Shown here: positions 15,077 to 54,827 of the stretch, one piece after another
How positions within the stretch are numbered: position 1 is the stretch's first letter
Layout: every line of letters starts with the position of its first letter
The notes under the pieces: generated by a model
Seen by the model: the letters and a program-made list of their open reading frames with translations, nothing else
What the model was told of the DNA's origin: nothing
Database searches by the model: none
Assembly: GCF_036507355.1 (NCBI RefSeq)
Contig: NZ_AP027877.1
Reading direction: 5' to 3' (one strand)
From: Escherichia coli
GTDB lineage: Bacteria; Pseudomonadota; Gammaproteobacteria; Enterobacterales; Enterobacteriaceae
Length of the DNA: 64,000 bases
Made by a program: the position numbers and the translations under genes

Positions 15077-15172
15077 TGTTTGTCGAAATGGTTGTAGAAA
15101 GATTAAACAATCCAGGATATGCTTATTGTACGGTGATATGCCGTACATATTATACGGAGCAGGAGAGTTCAC

Positions 15173-15439
15173 ATGTCTGCTGTTAAAAAGCAGCGTATCG
15201 ATCTGCGTTTAACTGACGATGACAAAAGTATGATTGAGGAAGCGGCAGCGATATCTAATCAGTCCGTCAGCCAATTTATGTTGAACAGCGCTTCGCAGCG
15301 GGCTGCGGAAGTGATTGAACAACATCGGCGGGTGATCCTCAATGAGGAATCCTGGACGCGGGTGATGGATGCGCTGAGTAATCCACCGTCACCAGGTGAA
15401 AAGCTAAAACGTGCGGCAAAACGTCTTCAGGGAATGTAA
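15173..15439 (+). CDS. DUF1778-family (RHH) antitoxin, TacA/AtaR-like (88 aa)
   Basis: Small protein, 7 nt upstream of a GNAT gene; SVSQFMLNSASQRAAEVIE resembles DUF1778 antitoxins. Confidence 0.75.
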   Translation: MSAVKKQRIDLRLTDDDKSMIEEAAAISNQSVSQFMLNSASQRAAEVIEQHRRVILNEESWTRVMDALSNPPSPGEKLKRAAKRLQGM

Positions 15440-15445
15440 TAATTT

Positions 15446-15973
15446 ATGGATGATCTGACGATAGAGATTCTGACCGATGATGCAGATTATGATCTACAGC
15501 GATTCGACTGCGGCGAGGAAGCGTTAAATCTCTTTCTGACGACACATCTGGTTCGTCAACATCGCAACAAAATTCTGCGAGCGTATATCCTTTGTCGCAA
15601 CACTCCAGAACGTCAGGTGCTGGGATATTACACATTATCCGGCAGTTGTTTTGAACGAGCCGCATTGCCCTCGAAATCGAAACAGAAAAAAATTCCCTAC
15701 AAAAATATTCCCAGCGTCACTCTTGGGCGTCTGGCAATTGATCATTCAATACAGGGGCAGGGATGGGGAGCAACACTGGTTGCTCATGCCATGAAAGTCG
15801 TCTGGTCAGCCTCTTTAGCGGTAGGTATTCACGGTCTTTTTGTCGAGGCGCTGAATGAAAAAGCCCATACGTTTTATCAGTCGCTGGGCTTTATCCCGTT
15901 AGTCGGGGAAAACGAAAATGCGTTATTTTTCCCAACGAAATCCATTGAACTGCTTTTTACACAGAGCGATTAA
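15446..15973 (+). CDS. GNAT-family acetyltransferase toxin, TacT/AtaT-like (175 aa)
   Basis: GNAT fold motif (QGQGWGATLVAHAM); paired with the upstream DUF1778 gene; 3-prime end overlaps convergent panZ by 4 nt. Confidence 0.75.
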   Translation: MDDLTIEILTDDADYDLQRFDCGEEALNLFLTTHLVRQHRNKILRAYILCRNTPERQVLGYYTLSGSCFERAALPSKSKQKKIPYKNIPSVTLGRLAIDHSIQGQGWGATLVAHAMKVVWSASLAVGIHGLFVEALNEKAHTFYQSLGFIPLVGENENALFFPTKSIELLFTQSD

Positions 15974-20899: not shown

Positions 20900-21613
20900 A
20901 TGGAAAAAGTCATGTTGTCCTTTGACAAAGTCAGCGCCCACTACGGCAAAATCCAGGCGCTGCATGAGGTGAGCCTGCATATCAATCAGGGCGAGATTGT
21001 CACGCTGATTGGCGCGAACGGGGCGGGGAAAACCACCTTGCTTGGCACATTATGCGGCGATCCACGCGCCACCAGCGGGCGAATTGTGTTTGATGATAAA
21101 GACATTACCGACTGGCAGACGGCGAAAATCATGCGCGAAGCGGTAGCGATTGTCCCGGAAGGGCGTCGCGTCTTCTCGCGGATGACGGTGGAAGAGAACC
21201 TGGCGATGGGCGGCTTCTTTGCCGAACGCGACCAGTTCCAGGAGCGCATAAAGTGGGTGTATGAACTGTTCCCGCGTCTGCATGAGCGCCGTGTTCAGCG
21301 GGCAGGCACCATGTCCGGCGGTGAACAGCAGATGCTGGCGATTGGTCGCGCGCTGATGAGCAACCCGCGTTTGTTGTTGCTTGATGAGCCATCGCTCGGT
21401 CTTGCGCCGATTATCATCCAGCAAATTTTCGACACCATCGAGCAGCTGCGCGAGCAGGGGATGACTATCTTCCTCGTCGAGCAGAACGCCAACCAGGCGC
21501 TAAAGCTGGCGGATCGCGGCTACGTGCTGGAAAACGGTCATGTGGTGCTCTCCGATACTGGTGATGCACTACTGGCGAACGAAGCGGTGAGAAGTGCGTA
21601 TTTAGGCGGGTAA
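20900..21613 (+). CDS. livF: Branched-chain amino acid ABC ATPase LivF (237 aa)
   Basis: ORF 20888..21613 trimmed to MEKVMLSFDKV; Walker A GANGAGKTT. Confidence 0.93.
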   Translation: MEKVMLSFDKVSAHYGKIQALHEVSLHINQGEIVTLIGANGAGKTTLLGTLCGDPRATSGRIVFDDKDITDWQTAKIMREAVAIVPEGRRVFSRMTVEENLAMGGFFAERDQFQERIKWVYELFPRLHERRVQRAGTMSGGEQQMLAIGRALMSNPRLLLLDEPSLGLAPIIIQQIFDTIEQLREQGMTIFLVEQNANQALKLADRGYVLENGHVVLSDTGDALLANEAVRSAYLGG

Positions 21614-21731
21614 ATTATCGATAACCCGGCAGCTAAGTTCTGCCGGGCTCTTCGTCCGTATACAGACTTGTTTCAACTGACCGGGAGGATTAAAACCAGA
21701 CCACTTATTTGCCACGGAAAGGTTCACTCCC

Positions 21732-22478
21732 ATGCATTATGCCGTTGTTGTCATGCTTGAACTGCTTTGCTGTATTCACGCTTACCGTACCGGACAAGAG
21801 CGGTACTGGATTTTTATCATTTTCTGTTTTCCGGTGATTGGCTGCGTGGCGTATTTCGTCATAGTGATGCTGCCTGAAACGGGCGCTGACCGTCACGGGC
21901 ATACTTTGCTGATGCGCCTGCAGGACAAACTCAACCCTGAGCGCCACCTGCGCAAATTAACCGAAGAACTGGCGATTGCCGAGACGAATCAAAACCATTA
22001 TGCGTTGGCTAATGAACTGGCGCGTCTGGAGCGTTACCACGAAGCCGTTCCCCATTATCAGCAGGCGTTAAGCGGGATATTCGCCCATGAAGCGGCAATG
22101 ATGTTAAGCCTGGCGCAGGCACAGTTTGCTATTCAGGAGTTCGCCGCCTGTCAGCAGACGCTGGAAGATGTGATGCGTTATAACCCTGATTTTCAGTCGG
22201 CAGACGGGCATTTGTTATTTGCCAGAACGTTAGCCGCACAAGAAAAATACGCTGATGCGGAAAGCGAGTTTGAAGTATTGATTTCTTATTACCCCGGCCC
22301 GCAGGCGCGTATTTACTATGCGGAAATGTTGGCGAAAATGAGTCGGTTACGTGAAGCCAACGAGCAGTATGTTGCTGTAGTTGATACGGCTAAACGCTCA
22401 AGACCTCATTATAGAAAACACCACCGGGAATGGATTAAGACCGCCAATGAACGGCTGAAGCAGAGTGTGGTGCAATGA
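21732..22478 (+). CDS. Hypothetical protein: PLDc_N-like two-helix membrane anchor plus soluble helical (TPR-like) domain (248 aa)
   Basis: N-terminus IHAYRTGQERYWIFIIFCFPVIGCVAYFV resembles the PLD N-terminal membrane module; remainder predicted helical; not part of the K-12 livF-ugpB junction as I recall it. Confidence 0.6.
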   Translation: MHYAVVVMLELLCCIHAYRTGQERYWIFIIFCFPVIGCVAYFVIVMLPETGADRHGHTLLMRLQDKLNPERHLRKLTEELAIAETNQNHYALANELARLERYHEAVPHYQQALSGIFAHEAAMMLSLAQAQFAIQEFAACQQTLEDVMRYNPDFQSADGHLLFARTLAAQEKYADAESEFEVLISYYPGPQARIYYAEMLAKMSRLREANEQYVAVVDTAKRSRPHYRKHHREWIKTANERLKQSVVQ

Positions 22479-22701
22479 AAATCTTCTTTGCCGTTAGACC
22501 AGTGTCGCGGCAATCTTTTGTTAAAATTGAAAAATGTAGCTCTCATCGGGCAGCAAAACTGGACGCAGAATTTGCTGCCATTTTTGCTCTTCATGGTAAG
22601 GAGTTCTGGCGATTAGCTGGCCGTTAATCGCCTCTTTTCAGTGCATTCTCGGGATATCCGTGCCCCATCTCCCATTTTCCCTCACCCGTACCGTCACCGC
22701 C

Positions 22702-28339: not shown

Positions 28340-30085
28340 ATGATAAAACCGACGTTTTTACGCCGGGTGGCCATTGCTGCTCTGTTCACAGGAAGTTGTT
28401 TTAGTACGGTAGCCGCGCCACCTGCGCCGTCTCCTGTTTCTTACGGCGTGGAGGAAGATGTCTTTCATCCGGTACGCGCGAAACAGGGGATGGTGGCGTC
28501 TGTCGATGCTACTGCCACTCAGGTGGGGGTGGATATCCTCAAGGAGGGCGGGAATGCCGTTGATGCCGCCGTGGCTGTGGGCTACGCGCTGGCGGTAACG
28601 CATCCGCAGGCAGGGAATCTGGGCGGTGGTGGTTTTATGCTGATCCGCTCGAAAAATGGCAATACCACCGCTATCGATTTCCGCGAAATGGCACCCGCCA
28701 AAGCGACCCGCGATATGTTCCTTGATGACCAGGGCAACCCGGACAGCAAAAAATCACTCACTTCGCATCTGGCTTCCGGCACGCCCGGTACGGTCGCTGG
28801 TTTCTCGCTGGCGTTGGATAAATACGGCACAATGCCGTTGAACAAAGTGGTGCAGCCAGCGTTTAAACTGGCACGCGATGGTTTTATCGTTAACGACGCA
28901 CTGGCTGACGATCTCAAAACCTACGGGAGCGAAGTGCTGCCGAATCACGAAAACAGCAAGGCTATCTTCTGGAAAGAGGGCGAGCCGCTGAAAAAGGGCG
29001 ACAAGCTGGTGCAGGCGAACCTGGCAAAGAGCCTGGAGATGATTGCCGAAAACGGCCCGGACGAATTCTACAAAGGCACGATAGCGGAACAGATTGCCCA
29101 GGAGATGCAGAAAAACGGTGGCCTGATCACTAAAGAAGATTTAGCGGCGTATAAAGCGGTCGAACGCACACCGATAAGCGGCGATTATCGCGGGTATCAG
29201 GTTTACTCCATGCCACCGCCATCCTCCGGCGGGATCCATATCGTACAAATCCTCAATATTCTGGAAAACTTCGATATGAAGAAATACGGTTTTGGCAGCG
29301 CCGACGCGATGCAGATCATGGCAGAAGCGGAGAAATATGCCTACGCTGACCGCTCGGAATATCTTGGCGACCCGGATTTTGTGAAAGTCCCGTGGCAGGC
29401 GCTGACCAATAAAGCCTATGCCAAATCTATTGCGGAGCAAATCGATATCAATAAAGCGAAACCGTCCAGCGAGATTCGCCCTGGCAAGCTTGCGCCTTAT
29501 GAGAGTAATCAAACTACCCATTACTCAGTGGTGGATAAAGACGGTAACGCCGTGGCGGTGACCTATACGCTGAACACCACCTTCGGTACGGGTATTGTCG
29601 CGGGCGAGAGCGGTATTCTGCTTAATAACCAGATGGATGATTTCTCCGCCAAACCGGGCGTACCGAACGTTTACGGGCTGGTGGGCGGTGATGCCAACGC
29701 GGTCGGGCCGAATAAACGCCCACTGTCGTCGATGTCACCAACCATTGTGGTGAAAGACGGTAAAACCTGGCTGGTTACCGGTAGCCCTGGCGGGAGTCGG
29801 ATTATTACCACCGTGCTGCAAATAGTGGTGAATAGCATCGATTATGGCATGAACGTCGCCGAAGCGACCAATGCGCCGCGTTTCCACCATCAGTGGTTGC
29901 CGGACGAGCTGCGTGTCGAAAAAGGGTTTAGCCCGGATACGCTCAAGCTGCTGGAAGCAAAAGGTCAGAAAGTGGCGCTGAAAGAGGCGATGGGCAGTAC
30001 ACAAAGCATTATGGTTGGGCCGGACGGTGAGTTGTACGGCGCATCCGACCCGCGCTCGGTGGATGATTTAACGGCGGGGTACTAA
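28340..30085 (+). CDS. ggt: Gamma-glutamyltranspeptidase Ggt
   Basis: ORF 28313..30085 trimmed to MIKPTFLRRVAIAALF; catalytic TTHYSVVD region present. Confidence 0.95.
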   Translation: MIKPTFLRRVAIAALFTGSCFSTVAAPPAPSPVSYGVEEDVFHPVRAKQGMVASVDATATQVGVDILKEGGNAVDAAVAVGYALAVTHPQAGNLGGGGFMLIRSKNGNTTAIDFREMAPAKATRDMFLDDQGNPDSKKSLTSHLASGTPGTVAGFSLALDKYGTMPLNKVVQPAFKLARDGFIVNDALADDLKTYGSEVLPNHENSKAIFWKEGEPLKKGDKLVQANLAKSLEMIAENGPDEFYKGTIAEQIAQEMQKNGGLITKEDLAAYKAVERTPISGDYRGYQVYSMPPPSSGGIHIVQILNILENFDMKKYGFGSADAMQIMAEAEKYAYADRSEYLGDPDFVKVPWQALTNKAYAKSIAEQIDINKAKPSSEIRPGKLAPYESNQTTHYSVVDKDGNAVAVTYTLNTTFGTGIVAGESGILLNNQMDDFSAKPGVPNVYGLVGGDANAVGPNKRPLSSMSPTIVVKDGKTWLVTGSPGGSRIITTVLQIVVNSIDYGMNVAEATNAPRFHHQWLPDELRVEKGFSPDTLKLLEAKGQKVALKEAMGSTQSIMVGPDGELYGASDPRSVDDLTAGY

Positions 30086-30093
30086 GGTTAGCG

Positions 30094-30124
30094 GCCCTCT
30101 TCGTGGGAAGAGGGCTATTTTGTC
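30094..30124. terminator. Bidirectional rho-independent terminator between ggt and yrhB
   Basis: Hairpin gccctcttc-gtgg-gaagagggc flanked by T/A tracts. Confidence 0.75.
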
Positions 30125-30407
30125 AGGGCAAGCCGAAGGTAGCCTTTTTTATTTCGTAATCCTGTAGATATTCTTCCAGCGGCTTTGCCGTTCCCAGAGA
30201 ATGAATTTCACCACTGTCTTTATCAATAATAAAAGGTGCGTTACCAGCTAAGCGCGCGGCCTCATCTCCAGTTTCGAGAAATTCTCGTGCTTCGAAACAG
30301 AAATACCAGCCCTGGCTAAAGCGTCCATGTAGAGTAATGACGACCGGGAGATCTGCATCATCAAGGTAATGGTTCGCTTTCGCGAATGCGTCGTGATAAG
30401 TAATTAT
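30123..30407 (-). CDS. yrhB: YrhB homolog (93 codons read from sequence); expected initiator position is ATA, not ATG
   Basis: Minus-strand translation ITYHDAFAKANHYLDDADLPVVITLHGRFSQGWYFCFEAREFLETGDEAARLAGNAPFIIDKDSGEIHSLGTAKPLEEYLQDYEIKKATFGLP; not in the ORF track because there is no ATG/GTG/TTG before the upstream in-frame stop. Confidence 0.55.
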   Translation of the reverse strand: MITYHDAFAKANHYLDDADLPVVITLHGRFSQGWYFCFEAREFLETGDEAARLAGNAPFIIDKDSGEIHSLGTAKPLEEYLQDYEIKKATFGLP

Positions 30408-30604
30408 AATTATAATAAATATTATTGTTGAGTGTTATATTATTATTCCTGTGTGATACATTGAGCAAAGGCGCGTTCATCTTCGTCAAAGATATTATTA
30501 AATGCTGGTTTTGAAAAAAGTTCATCGGATAAGATATAGTCACGAAATAAGTATCTGCTAATATTTTGTGATTTTTTTCAGAACGTCGAACGGGATTTTC
30601 TTAT

Positions 30605-30769
30605 TTAAGATATCAGAATCTTATGATTCGGGTAAAATTCTAAATAAATCAACATGTCACTAAAATCATCATAGCCATTAGCTATTTCGGCTAAAATAGA
30701 GACTACATGTCTTCGGTCCATCTCACTTAAGGAGTGTAGTTCCGTTGTAAGTTTTTCCATAGCTTGCAT
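30605..30769 (-). CDS. Possible small ORF (54 aa)
   Basis: ATG..TAA ORF read by hand: MQAMEKLTTELHSLSEMDRRHVVSILAEIANGYDDFSDMLIYLEFYPNHKILIS; AT-rich; below the track length cutoff. Confidence 0.25.
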   Translation of the reverse strand: MQAMEKLTTELHSLSEMDRRHVVSILAEIANGYDDFSDMLIYLEFYPNHKILIS

Positions 30770-30854
30770 TGCTAAATTTCGAACAAGGAATTTTCTGGTG
30801 GTAATCTCTAAAAAGATGGTATGGTTTACAATGATTTTTGTTTCCTTTTGATTA

Positions 30855-31349
30855 TTATGAACAACTGTCCATGATTTCGTTTAAGAATGAAGAGAAATCA
30901 CTAAACGAACTGAATATATTTTCTGTGCCAATATTATCTCTAATTTCAAAAAAGTTACTTTTAATGTCATAAGTAAATATTGAAATGCTATCATCCCCGA
31001 TCACTAACCGTTCTTGTAGATCAGGGTTTATGAAATCATCATTATTTCTATAAAATTCATTTACGGCAAAAAGGTTTTTAACTGAAGGTTCTGGAATCGA
31101 GAGGCTAAATAATCGTAATCCATTAACTTCGAATCCATCCATTGCTCTTAAAAAAGTAAGATAATCAGGTTGATTCTTAAAAAGAATACTAACTTCATTA
31201 CATAACTTCTCCAGGCAATTAGTTGAATTAGAATTAAATTCTATTTGGATTATACTTTCAATAAATGATTCCTTGAGCGGTGCTTCAAATGGATAGTCTA
31301 AATCATTCATCATTTTTATTAATTTGTTTATTTGGGTTTTAGTCATCAT
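30855..31349 (-). CDS. Putative immunity protein (YrhA-like), translationally coupled to the upstream Hcp-HNH gene (164 aa)
   Basis: Start ATG overlaps the stop of the HNH reading frame (ATGA); AT-rich, acidic small protein typical of immunity genes. Confidence 0.6.
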   Translation of the reverse strand: MMTKTQINKLIKMMNDLDYPFEAPLKESFIESIIQIEFNSNSTNCLEKLCNEVSILFKNQPDYLTFLRAMDGFEVNGLRLFSLSIPEPSVKNLFAVNEFYRNNDDFINPDLQERLVIGDDSISIFTYDIKSNFFEIRDNIGTENIFSSFSDFSSFLNEIMDSCS

Positions 31350-32524
31350 TTTGTGGGTTCCATAATATTTTTCATGGGAGGATAAATTGAGCCAGATGGA
31401 ATGGCCCAGGGAGTGATTTTACTTTCACCTACTAATATTCCCTTAGCTATTCGTGATTGCATGTTAGTAAAAACTTTATGATATGGTTCGTTTTCGATTA
31501 ATACTAAATTTTCGAAATCATTAGTACCACCATCATCTAGAGATAGTTTATGGTGAACATTATAATTTAGAGGAACATAGCCCTTTCTCATTCTTAAAAG
31601 GTCTTCGGCGTTGAATCTTCCAGATGCTTCGGAGGTTTTTGCAAGTTTGATAAGAAAATTTTTTCTTACAGTTTTGTTAAACTCCTTTCGTAAGTTAGCT
31701 AAGTCTTTTGAAGGTCTCTTAATGTATATTATTTATATTATGTCTATGCCATCAAGAAGTTTTTGTTGACCTCTAAGTTTGCCTAAGTAACTATTTATTT
31801 CTGTATATGTATCAACTCTAGAACGCTTTGTTAAAAGAATAGATGCTGTTGCTATCGCTATGCCCGCTGTTTTTTCATTTAGTATTTGATCATAGCCTTT
31901 GATTGCATCTCCACCCAGTTTTTCCGCAGTATCTCTGAATCCTTCAATGTTCCCATTGTATACGCCACCAGCAGCAAGTAGCCTGCCAACAGCTTTGCTG
32001 TTTAACGTTTTGAAACGATTATTTGTTTGGTTTTTTGAATTTGGTAAAAACAAACGGTTATAATTTTCAGGGAGTGCCAAATAGCTGAACTCGGTATTTG
32101 CGATAAGATGTTGACAGAGGATAAATTCATAACTAACAGTTATTGTTTCTGTATCCAGTTGATTTTCAATGATCTGATGATGAATAGCCGATAAAAAAGC
32201 GCCTCTTAGTTGTATATAATAATACTTTTCCCATCTGCCAAATCTATTGATTCTATAAAAGTCAAATCCCATAAATAATTGCTCATTATTGTTAATGGAA
32301 TTAATAAGTAATGGAGTGCTTTTATCAATTAATTTACAAAATGTTATACCCTGTAACTGTGAACCAAGCCCCGTATTAGTAATGCTATTTGCGAGTGAGA
32401 ATGTAAATATTTCATTCTCATGCCCGCTCTGCCAGCGATTACCTATAGATTCAGTAGTCCCACAACCTGCGGAGATGCTTCCTTGTTGTTCTCCCGTTAC
32501 TGTCAGGTAAACAATATTACTCAT
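31346..32524 (-). pseudogene. yhhZ: Hcp-domain protein with C-terminal HNH nuclease (YhhZ-like Hcp-ET toxin), interrupted by an in-frame TAA
   Basis: ORFs 31733..32524 (263 aa, Hcp-like N-terminus) and 31346..31591 (HNH motif NYNVHHKLSLDDGGTNDFENLVLIENEPYH) are in the same frame, separated by one TAA at 31733..31735; the full span is 393 codons. Confidence 0.7.
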
Positions 32525-32760
32525 CCCTGAAAAGTCCTTTTATGGCATGCTATTTTATCAATGGCACTATTATGCTTGTTAATTGTTATTTATTTACTCC
32601 AGGAAATTGTAGGCGTATATATTAAAAAATAAAATATTACACTTTAGGAAGTAATTATGAGGTAAATCTCAATATATTTATTGGGAAAATAAATATATTA
32701 AAGGAAGGTATGCCGATTTTGAATGACACCCTTTTTCCATCTCAGAAAAAGGGCACTATC

Positions 32761-33249
32761 TTACTTCACCCGCGCCATATAATACGCATCGACATATTCA
32801 CCATTACGCAATGCGTACTTCTTACCAGTCCCTTCAATTTCAAAGCCGTATTTTTTATAGACCTTAATTGCCGGGGCGTTATCGACAAACACGGTTAGTT
32901 CAATGCGATCTACCCGCAACCAGTTGTCGCACATTTCAATCATCTCTCGCATAAGGGCGCTGGCGACGCCGCGATTCTTCCAACGGGAGTCGACACAGAT
33001 ACCAAAATCGGCAACATGACTGCGGCGTGGGCGCTGTTGCACGTCAATGGTGAGATGACCCACGACGTCTCCATCAATACAGGCGACGAGTTGCTTGATG
33101 CCGGGACGATCGGCGAGTCGCTCCTGCCACATATGATCGGAAGGATGAGGCACCTGTAGTGTGTTGTAATACACCTCCGGCTGGGCGTGAATCTGCCTGA
33201 TGGCCTCGTAATCGCGCGTTTCAGCATGGCGTATCACTATCTCACTCAT
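32761..33249 (-). CDS. yhhY: GNAT N-acetyltransferase YhhY (162 aa)
   Basis: ORF 32761..33327 trimmed to MSEIVIRHAETRDYEAIRQIHA. Confidence 0.9.
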   Translation of the reverse strand: MSEIVIRHAETRDYEAIRQIHAQPEVYYNTLQVPHPSDHMWQERLADRPGIKQLVACIDGDVVGHLTIDVQQRPRRSHVADFGICVDSRWKNRGVASALMREMIEMCDNWLRVDRIELTVFVDNAPAIKVYKKYGFEIEGTGKKYALRNGEYVDAYYMARVK

Positions 33250-52905: not shown

Positions 52906-53442
52906 TGATGAATATAATCAGACTTTATATTTATCCGTTATTTCTCGGCTTTGTTATTGTGCCGTTGTTGGTGTGGCCGATGGTGGTTGCGCTGGCTGCT
53001 TGTATTATCACGCTGAGTTTTCTGGGGGAAATGCTGTTCTCAATCCCGCTCATGATCAGGCGTATTTCACTTCTGCAATTACAACTTTGGTTATCGGCTG
53101 AATATGCGCTTTTCTTCTGTGTAATGTGTTGCGTTGGTTGGCAATTTACTCGTAGAACTCAATCTGAATTGAAAAGCAGGCTCCATTGTTGGTTGGTATT
53201 CGCACCGGTCTATTTATGGTTGATCCTCTGGAATATCATTTTTTACATCGCGCCAGCGAAAATTGCGTTGCTGGAAAGTATCCGCAATTTCTTTCTGCTT
53301 GTTGTCTGGCTACCCCTGAATTTTTCGCCATTTTGGCCTCAGCCGTGGACGGATTTTATCGGTCCAATAAGCGCACAGTGAGGTAGCCTGAGTTTAACGG
53401 ACACTCCTTCCTGAAATAGAATGGCATCAGAAGGAGCTAATA

Positions 53443-53745
53443 ATGAGCAGAAAAACCCAACGTTACTCTAAAGAGTTCAAAGCCGAAGCTGTCAGAACGG
53501 TTCTTGAAAATCAACTTTCGATCAGTGAAGGCGCTTCCCGATTATCTCTTCCTGAAGGCACTTTAGGACAATGGGTTACCGCCGCCAGAAAAGGGCTCGG
53601 TACTCCTGGTTCCCGCACGGTGGCTGAACTGGAATCTGAAATTCTGCAACTGCGTAAGGCGTTAAATGAAGCTCGCCTTGAGCGAGATATATTAAAAAAA
53701 GCAACAGCGTATTTTGCACAGGAGTCGCTGAAAAATACGCGTTAA
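53443..53745 (+). CDS. IS3-family transposase OrfA (HTH, 100 aa)
   Basis: MSRKTQRYSKEFKAEAVRTV...; typical IS3 OrfA with leucine zipper. Confidence 0.85.
   Translation: MSRKTQRYSKEFKAEAVRTVLENQLSISEGASRLSLPEGTLGQWVTAARKGLGTPGSRTVAELESEILQLRKALNEARLERDILKKATAYFAQESLKNTR
53694..53701 (+). promoter_or_regulatory. Probable -1 programmed frameshift site (A6G) for the OrfAB transposase
   Basis: aaaaaaag near the 3-prime end of orfA, upstream of the orfB frame. Confidence 0.55.
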
Positions 53746-53780
53746 TCGAACAATGGCGACAACAATTTCCCATTGAAGCG

Positions 53781-54599
53781 ATGTGTCAGGTATTTGGTGT
53801 ATCCAGGAGCGGTTATTACAACTGGGTACAGCATGAACCCTCAGACAGAAAACAAAGTGATGAGCGGCTAAAACTGGAGATTAAGGTGGCACATATCCGC
53901 ACTCGCGAAACATATGGAACCCGGCGGCTCCAGACGGAGCTGGCAGAGAATGGCATCATCGTTGGTCGTGACCGACTGGCACGTCTTCGTAAGGAGCTAA
54001 GGCTACGCTGTAAGCAGAAACGCAAGTTCAGAGCGACTACGAACTCGAACCACAATCTGCCAGTTGCGCCAAATCTGCTGAACCAGACGTTCGCTCCTAC
54101 AGCACCAAATCAGGTCTGGGTGGCGGACCTGACGTATGTTGCCACACAGGAGGGATGGTTGTACCTCGCTGGCATCAAAGATGTTTATACGTGCGAAATT
54201 GTCGGCTACGCCATGGGAGAGCGCATGACAAAAGAGCTGACAGGTAAAGCCCTGTTTATGGCGCTCAGGAGCCAGCGCCCACCTGCCGGGCTAATCCACC
54301 ACTCTGATCGAGGTTCACAGTACTGCGCATACGATTACCGGGTCATACAGGAGCAGTTTGGTCTGAAAACATCAATGTCGCGTAAAGGTAACTGTTACGA
54401 CAACGCTCCGATGGAAAGCTTCTGGGGAACGCTGAAAAATGAGAGCCTGAGCCACTATCGTTTTAATAACCGGGATGAAGCCATCTCAGTAATACGGGAA
54501 TACATTGAGATTTTCTACAATCGTCAGCGTCGTCACTCTCGTCTGGGGAATATCTCCCCGGCAGCCTTCAGGGAAAAATATCATCAGATGGCTGCTTAA
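53781..54599 (+). CDS. IS3-family transposase OrfB (DDE integrase core); the true N-terminus is probably fused to OrfA by frameshifting
   Basis: 272-aa ORF with an rve-type integrase core. Confidence 0.85.
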   Translation: MCQVFGVSRSGYYNWVQHEPSDRKQSDERLKLEIKVAHIRTRETYGTRRLQTELAENGIIVGRDRLARLRKELRLRCKQKRKFRATTNSNHNLPVAPNLLNQTFAPTAPNQVWVADLTYVATQEGWLYLAGIKDVYTCEIVGYAMGERMTKELTGKALFMALRSQRPPAGLIHHSDRGSQYCAYDYRVIQEQFGLKTSMSRKGNCYDNAPMESFWGTLKNESLSHYRFNNRDEAISVIREYIEIFYNRQRRHSRLGNISPAAFREKYHQMAA

Positions 54600-54827
54600 A
54601 AAAAGAACAAATGGTAGTGTCCGCTATTGCCAGTACACCTCACAGCTTGGTTTTGCGTTGGGATATTATTGCCAGTGGCGCAGCAAAAATAGATGCCAGA
54701 TACGGAAGTGGAGTGAGTGGGGAACGTGCTTAAGTTTTGTTACGTTGGGTATGATGGCGTGGGCTTTGCGGTAATTCCCTGAATCAAAAAGTAGGTCAGA
54801 TTGTTGACAACGTGGCACTTTGTTCAT

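Follow-up and report, generated by a model that had tools for sequence, protein, structure and literature searches.

Does an orphan gene that joins a type VI secretion system (T6SS) tube protein to a nuclease still encode a weapon in the genome where it is found, and is such a gene out of place when no other T6SS gene lies nearby? This question is raised by a locus of Escherichia coli within a stretch of 64,000 nucleotides (NCBI RefSeq assembly GCF_036507355.1, contig NZ_AP027877.1), which was analysed as a whole and is hereafter called the window. Coordinates 30855-32524 of the window hold two minus-strand genes, yhhZ (tssD) and yrhA, which belong to a chromosomal E. coli island known from K-12, yhhZ(tssD)-yrhA-yrhD-yrhB, on the minus strand with yhhY and ggt flanking. 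A preliminary description, made from the letters of the DNA, had seen in them one Hcp-HNH toxin gene with a coupled immunity gene, stranded away from any T6SS cluster. The reading that we consider highly probable is that the island is a T6SS polymorphic-toxin effector/immunity module of the known yhhZ type, in which the toxin is disabled here by a nonsense mutation (E264*) while yrhA is intact. The features on which this reading turns are the following.

31346..32524, minus strand: yhhZ (tssD) reading frame, Hcp-HNH of 'Hcp-ET1-type', a pseudogene here; 392 codons plus TGA, with an internal TAA
32084..32524, minus strand: Hcp/TssD tube-protein domain, amino acids 1-147 (TIGR03344, PF05638, PDB 3he1)
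31736..32083, minus strand: linker or pre-toxin region, amino acids 148-263 (BLASTP against non-Hcp toxins)
31733..31735, minus strand: premature stop TAA (E264*); GAA in intact orthologues
31349..31732, minus strand: predicted colicin/pyocin-like HNH (His-Me finger) DNase domain, an untranslated remnant, amino acids 265-392 (profile, AlphaFold2 model, Foldseek)
31478..31555, minus strand: HNH catalytic core VHHKLSLDDGGTNDFENLVLIENEPYH (H324, H325, N335, N339, H349), from invariant alignment columns
30855..31349, minus strand: yrhA, intact, 164 amino acids, immunity protein of predicted SUKH (SMI1/KNR4) fold (NF038335, AlphaFold2, Foldseek)
31346..31349, minus strand: ATGA overlap, in which the TGA stop of yhhZ (31348..31346) and the ATG start of yrhA (31349..31347) are read directly in the sequence

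The best match to the 2.2-kb region was found in strain A16 with 99.6% identity, where the genes are annotated as tssD (Hcp1 family T6SS effector), yrhA and yrhD, the tssD is intact with 392 amino acids, and the neighbours are yhhY and yrhB-ggt. Like the domain matches given below, this identity to an annotated E. coli tssD/yrhA is far beyond chance. Compared with A16, YrhA is 100% identical (WP_000988496.1) and four codons of yhhZ differ, among them codon 264, at which GAA has become TAA through a C to A change on the plus strand at 31735. The longest open reading frame in the yhhZ frame is 263 amino acids, which covers Hcp and linker. Thus the toxin domain, which is fused to Hcp in one polypeptide in the orthologues, is parted from it in this copy by the in-frame TAA, and what had been described as one toxin gene is a 263-amino-acid reading frame followed by an in-frame HNH remnant. 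The largest ATG-initiated reading frame over the HNH part has 81 amino acids (31591..31346) and starts at M312; reinitiation there was considered as a source of active toxin and rejected, as the product would be without the first ~47 residues of the nuclease domain, helices included, and without an export domain.

A 71-nucleotide probe centred on the stop matched exactly in only two of ~3,505 genomes carrying the region, namely A30 (from baboon) and GPT24-02, both of which are complete, and in both the annotation pipeline PGAP labels the E264* tssD a pseudogene with 'internal stop'. Over the 5 kb around the stop these two genomes are 1.2-1.7% divergent from the window, so the E264* allele is real and rare, and reaches beyond one clone. 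Moreover, the family-invariant residues H324, H325, D330, N335, N339, P347 and H349 of a 35-sequence alignment are all still encoded downstream of the stop, which indicates that the nonsense mutation is recent. In this genome yhhZ is therefore a pseudogene, a copy of an Hcp-ET family member but not a functional member.

Regarding the two ends of the reading frame, both domain assignments of the preliminary description stand as far as the encoded sequence is concerned. The N-terminal part is recognised as Hcp by NCBIfam TIGR03344 (residues 1-147, E 3.4e-35, 121 bits against a cut-off of 58.9), by Pfam T6SS_HCP (PF05638, E 1.3e-11) and by solved structures, with E 4e-11 for 3he1 (Hcp3) and 2e-10 for 6a2v. 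The 3' part of yhhZ encodes an HH...N...N...H motif, and Pfam HNH is detected at E<=0.001 in 19 of the 35 homologues. A profile built from five homologous sequences matched the DNase of ColE7 at E 1.3e-4, spanning profile positions 20-84 and so including the helices ahead of the HNH motif, and it also matched pyocin S2, AP41 and colicin E2. The AlphaFold2 model of the domain, computed from the 35-sequence alignment, has a mean pLDDT of 94.7, and Foldseek places it with probability 1.0 on 4qko, 4uhp, 3fbd and 1mz8, the DNases of pyocin S2, pyocin AP41 and ColE7/E9/E2, at a root-mean-square deviation of 2.4-2.9 Å over ~80 residues. On this model the encoded remnant is predicted to have the beta-beta-alpha-metal fold with catalytic His-His, structural Asn and metal-ligand His.

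The likeness to the DNases of colicins E7/E9/E2 and pyocins S2/AP41 lies in the beta-beta-alpha-metal core, the preceding helices and the HH...N...H pattern, whereas identity is ~20-28% over ~80 aligned residues and the last metal-binding His of the colicins (HxxxH) is not conserved in YhhZ (HKVFTN). Delivery would also differ, by Hcp and T6SS for the YhhZ type and by receptor and translocation domains for colicins and pyocins, and so does immunity, with a SUKH fold predicted for YrhA in place of the four-helix Im7/Im9 type. In the His-Me finger superfamily YhhZ has been assigned to group 32 (PMC5714182).

YrhA belongs to the NCBIfam YrhA family (NF038335, E 1.5e-36). Its fold was obtained by structure prediction, sequence searches having given no match: the AlphaFold2 model has a pLDDT of 87 and a pTM of 0.85, and Foldseek's six best distinct PDB entries (2icg, 2prv, 3d5p, 6qbp, 6qbq and 6qbo; probability 0.93-1.0) are all SUKH/SMI1-KNR4 structures, comprising Listeria 2icg, B. 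subtilis YobK (2prv), Bacteroides 3d5p (SMI1/KNR4) and yeast Knr4. With the SUKH immunity proteins of polymorphic toxin systems (Zhang, Iyer, Aravind), such as YobK, the immunity protein of the YobL toxin, YrhA shares the predicted fold and the position directly 3' of a nuclease toxin, although it has no sequence match to Pfam SMI1_KNR4 and NCBI keeps a YrhA family of its own; some UniRef entries already name YrhA as SMI1/KNR4. As modelled, YrhA is thus a SUKH member at fold level only. SUKH is a versatile immunity superfamily of nuclease polymorphic toxins (PMC3482391).

The pairing of toxin and YrhA is kept in other genera. Four loci of other Enterobacterales (Citrobacter, Leclercia and another genus) were compared, and in each a YrhA homologue stands directly 3' of the HNH toxin. 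In Citrobacter youngae the gene ahead of it is Hcp-HNH, again at yhhY|ggt. In two of the four the N-terminal domain is not Hcp: in the Leclercia-type locus and the other genus it follows a DUF8093 protein with the same linker and HNH domain. Because the pairing is kept where the N-terminus is DUF8093, YrhA tracks the HNH toxin module and not Hcp, and therefore behaves as a cognate immunity protein should. The overlap and the coupled immunity gene, both proposed beforehand, are thus borne out, the former by direct reading and the latter by the SUKH-fold model together with this adjacency in other genera. As in the Hcp-ET family, the putative cognate immunity gene stands immediately downstream of the toxin frame, and neutralisation is predicted. 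In the Leclercia-type loci L011 (4822-8501) and L012 (3363-7042), the YrhA homologue and the DUF8093-HNH toxin adjoin Imm70 and Imm63 genes, and the same loci carry the 3' end of a CdiA-like filamentous haemagglutinin/PT-VENN toxin of ~2,800-2,900 amino acids; these loci are composite toxin/immunity neighbourhoods.

The linker also travels with the nuclease. Its amino acids ~171-263 (NSKAxGRLLAAGGVYNGNIEGFR...) accompany the HNH domain even under a non-Hcp N-terminus, and BLASTP of YhhZ amino acids 171-382 against the DUF8093 toxins of loci L011 and L010 gave 57-69% identity; P0154 has the same architecture as these non-Hcp (DUF8093) linker-HNH toxins. When homologues of the C-terminal domain were sought by a word-indexed search, most of what came back was E. 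coli fragments, and it was an exhaustive profile search of representatives that revealed the family, with 882 clusters at 50% identity. Among the 150 best representatives of these clusters, which range from 127 to 1,542 amino acids in length, the toxin domain lies at the extreme C-terminus in all 150 (median one residue after it, maximum 17), and a YhhZ-like N-terminal Hcp or linker region is present in only seven. The N-terminal partners in a sample of 60 proteins include LXG/WXG100 of the type VII secretion system, PT-TG, Tox-PAAR-like, DUF4280, PAAR, prePAAR/RHS, MuF_C, the core of extracellular contractile injection systems (eCIS) and Hcp. Being always C-terminal and having such diverse N-terminal partners, the HNH domain bears the signature of a polymorphic toxin. 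What we find agrees with polymorphic toxin systems (Zhang et al. 2012) in having a C-terminal toxin recombined onto diverse trafficking domains with an immunity gene downstream. Hcp1-fused toxins were noted in a survey of polymorphic toxins (PMC3482391).

The island as such is an already known E. coli locus, published and annotated. In 2009 Blondel et al. called YhhZ an 'evolved Hcp', its N-terminus being Hcp and its C-terminus a degenerate HNH (PMC2907695). According to reviews that summarise the primary paper on the Hcp-ET family (Ma et al. 2017, Virulence 8:1189), Hcp-ET1 is an orphan Hcp-HNH DNase that is delivered by T6SS2, kills competitors and is neutralised by ETI1 (PMC6730261, PMC6099711), its nuclease activity being cited there as predicted HNH-DNase only (PMC6730261). 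In strains 55989 and C227-11, Hcp-ET1/ETI1 consists of an orphan hcp followed by the immunity gene in tandem (bioRxiv 10.1101/2024.03.05.583533), and at the present locus strain 55989 has an orthologous 392-amino-acid tssD and yrhA, with 17 amino-acid differences from our copy besides the stop. By inference, which is well supported but indirect, YhhZ/YrhA is Hcp-ET1/ETI1. The window agrees with YhhZ/Hcp-ET1 and YrhA/ETI1 in the yhhY|ggt locus, the gene order, the architecture of Hcp, linker and HNH, and the overlapping immunity gene, but differs from the intact form in that E264* leaves no fusion protein and yrhB has no ATG. Other Hcp-ETs are built on the same principle, with the tube protein bearing a C-terminal toxin and an immunity gene coming next (PMC6730261, PMC6099711), but differ in toxin and immunity family: Hcp-ET2 carries a Tle1 lipase, Hcp-ET3/4 a pyocin S3/colicin DNase including Usp, and Hcp-ET5 a papain-like toxin.

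How such a module would work can be outlined as follows. In intact versions the N-terminal Hcp would join the hexameric rings of the T6SS inner tube and carry the C-terminal HNH DNase into neighbouring bacteria, where DNA would be degraded, while YrhA, translationally coupled, would bind the DNase and neutralise it in producer and kin cells. The secretion apparatus itself would be encoded elsewhere, T6SS2 being the reported delivery system. In the present copy the change of GAA to TAA at codon 264 would sever the linker from the DNase, and at most a 263-amino-acid Hcp-linker protein would be made, with the predicted result that the cell is disarmed for this effector yet still immune to it. The DNase activity, its neutralisation by YrhA, delivery through T6SS2 and a cell that is disarmed but immune are what we infer from the literature or by reasoning. 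The present analysis itself provides the identity of the genes, the folds of their domains, the stop codon and how rare its allele is, the conserved adjacency of toxin and immunity gene, and the lack of T6SS genes in the window.

With respect to the position of the module, three further features of the island have to be introduced.

30090..32760, no strand: accessory island, AT-rich (33% G+C; whole window 52%), lying between ggt and yhhY
30605..30760, minus strand: yrhD, small island reading frame, annotated 'protein YrhD' in syntenic genomes
30123..30407, minus strand: yrhB, Imm35-family orphan immunity-type gene (Pfam Imm35, E 4.6e-23)

The rest of the window is ordinary E. coli backbone, running acpT-yhhT ... 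ftsYEX-rpoH-liv-ugp-ggt up to the island and yhhY-yhhX-yhhW-gntRKU-asd-glg ... glpD-rtc-malT past it. Besides tssD, no T6SS gene is annotated across the 64-kb window in syntenic genomes, which agrees with what had been claimed from the letters; the statement applies to these 64 kb. However, the description of the island as stranded does not hold. The 2.2-kb region was found in 4,348 of 5,426 complete E. coli genomes, every time on the chromosome, and the full island sits at yhhY|ggt in 3,759 of the 5,426 (69%), so this is the normal and conserved home of the module. At least four states of the site occur in E. coli: the full island, yrhB only, a DUF4225 gene, and empty. Exchange of cassettes at this site with another Hcp-ET, such as a papain-like Hcp-ET5 to which yrhB (Imm35) would correspond, found no support in the sample, the alternatives in it being only empty, yrhB-only and DUF4225. 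In E. coli O157:H7 (L008 1418-2329), a 303-amino-acid DUF4225 protein occupies the place where the window has the yhhZ island. Scans of 30000-33000 for promoters and terminators gave counts not above those of shuffled sequence, and yrhD had no match in NCBIfam.

Erosion of the island is common, and takes the form of nonsense mutation, insertion of IS1 or ISKpn26 and loss of a start codon, with an immunity gene persisting. In the window itself yrhB begins with ATA instead of ATG (codon 30405-30407, with T at 30405 where others have C), a private change, since of 3,706 E. coli genomes in which the region is present not one has it. Imm35 is an immunity family linked to papain-like Tox-PL1 toxins. 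It is an improbable idea that yrhB is a relic of immunity to Hcp-ET5-type papain-like effectors, which would make yhhY|ggt a former site of cassette exchange. In other strains ISKpn26 is inserted in tssD, and public protein sets hold separately called C-terminal 'HNH endonuclease' reading frames with hundreds of member sequences. In K-12, yhhZ is intact and yrhA is disrupted by IS1 (PMC12428005), a disruption that was also seen in our survey of the site among E. coli genomes. In C. youngae GCA_000155975.1 the Hcp-HNH orthologue (L013 2826-3941) is truncated at its C-terminus, with 371 amino acids against 394 in a related contig, which is a further independent decay event of this toxin.

Several results weigh against the reading of the island as a disabled nuclease effector with its immunity gene. 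The match of the single sequence to Pfam HNH is weak (E 0.015, and 0.003 on the isolated domain), for which reason the family profile and the structure model were used, and the Foldseek TM to colicin DNases is 0.42-0.46 with ~80 of 128 residues aligned. YrhA has no Pfam match even at E<=10, SMI1_KNR4/SUKH profiles included; its profile found only chance antibody matches among PDB sequences, and its TM to SUKH structures is only 0.48-0.57. That Hcp-ET1 is the yhhZ orthologue rests on secondary sources and the 55989 locus. Finally, since K-12 has an intact yhhZ together with the IS1-disrupted yrhA, cytoplasmic YhhZ is evidently tolerated at native expression, and given this tolerance the potency of the YhhZ toxin in vivo is uncertain.

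Among the alternatives, the one that survives best is that the truncation is adaptive, the 263-amino-acid Hcp-linker being kept as a structural or decoy tube subunit after the toxin was shed against self-damage or cost. Such a subunit would fit with a whole Hcp domain, a stop placed exactly on the domain boundary, an allele common to three non-clonal genomes and an intact immunity gene. Nevertheless, an allele present in only two of the ~3,505 other genomes is very rare, the unchanged HNH codons downstream mark the event as recent, and the locus decays in many ways, through IS1 in yrhA, ISKpn26 in tssD, split HNH reading frames and the truncated Citrobacter copy, while the second private lesion in yrhB fits a general erosion of the island. 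We therefore hold a retained tube subunit to be improbable. The related proposal that selection, and not random decay, lies behind E264* as a 'disarmed but immune' state seems to us only slightly less doubtful; if true, a T6SS effector locus would here offer a natural case of toxin loss with immunity retained (cheater or loser-protection dynamics).

A second alternative takes the YhhZ-type evolved Hcps not as T6SS effectors but as proteins with an intracellular role (stress, biofilm), or as a nuclease-based system of defence or addiction in which YrhA would be the antitoxin. In its favour, K-12, which has no T6SS, retains the gene (PMC6730261), and no T6SS genes lie nearby. However, reviews report that Hcp-ET1 is antibacterial in a T6SS2-dependent manner and neutralised by ETI1 (PMC6730261, PMC6099711), and the same toxin domain occurs on export modules of the LXG, PAAR, Rhs and eCIS kinds, which speaks for a weapon that is exported. 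By the account of secondary sources, Ma et al. 2017 reported that the intact orthologue kills prey without yrhA in a T6SS-dependent way. The addiction version fares no better, because it would not allow the tolerance of intact yhhZ with disrupted yrhA in K-12. On balance, a role outside T6SS is quite unlikely.

It is even harder to maintain the first proposal, of an orphan Hcp-HNH toxin that is whole and works, paired with its immunity gene and stranded where no T6SS is near. The architecture of the domains and the coupling of the immunity gene do hold, the HNH catalytic residues are encoded and the window has no T6SS genes, yet the TAA at codon 264 parts Hcp from HNH, PGAP calls the same allele a pseudogene, the only ATG reading frame over the HNH (from M312) is without the N-terminal helices and without a delivery domain, and the orphan position is the norm, not a stranding. 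Equally hard to credit is a sequencing or assembly error in a gene that is really intact, for although the stop is a single-base difference from the nearest genome and ~3,500 other genomes have GAA, the identical allele stands in two independently sequenced complete genomes that are themselves diverged from the window.

With the preferred reading of a disabled yhhZ-type module, the annotation should be corrected, the effector being a pseudogene and yrhA an orphaned intact immunity gene, and no functional Hcp-ET1 weapon should be credited to the strain. The value as a discovery is small, since yhhZ/yrhA has already been published as evolved Hcp, as Hcp-ET1/ETI1 and as His-Me finger group 32.

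Elsewhere in the window, three further features were seen. An IS3-family insertion sequence of 1.26 kb at 53379-54640 (orfA 53443-53745; orfB 53781-54599, NF033516, E 7e-100), which is multi-copy in most E. coli genomes, interrupts a gene for a hypothetical membrane protein that is intact in strain PS10-3. Between livJ and panM, at ~15170-15970, lies an ataR-ataT type II toxin-antitoxin pair with a GNAT acetyltransferase toxin, as annotated in a genome that is fully syntenic and 98.3% identical. A segment of ~1 kb between livF and ugpB (~21613-22655) is missing in 55989 and encodes a tetratricopeptide-repeat protein in F2_81.

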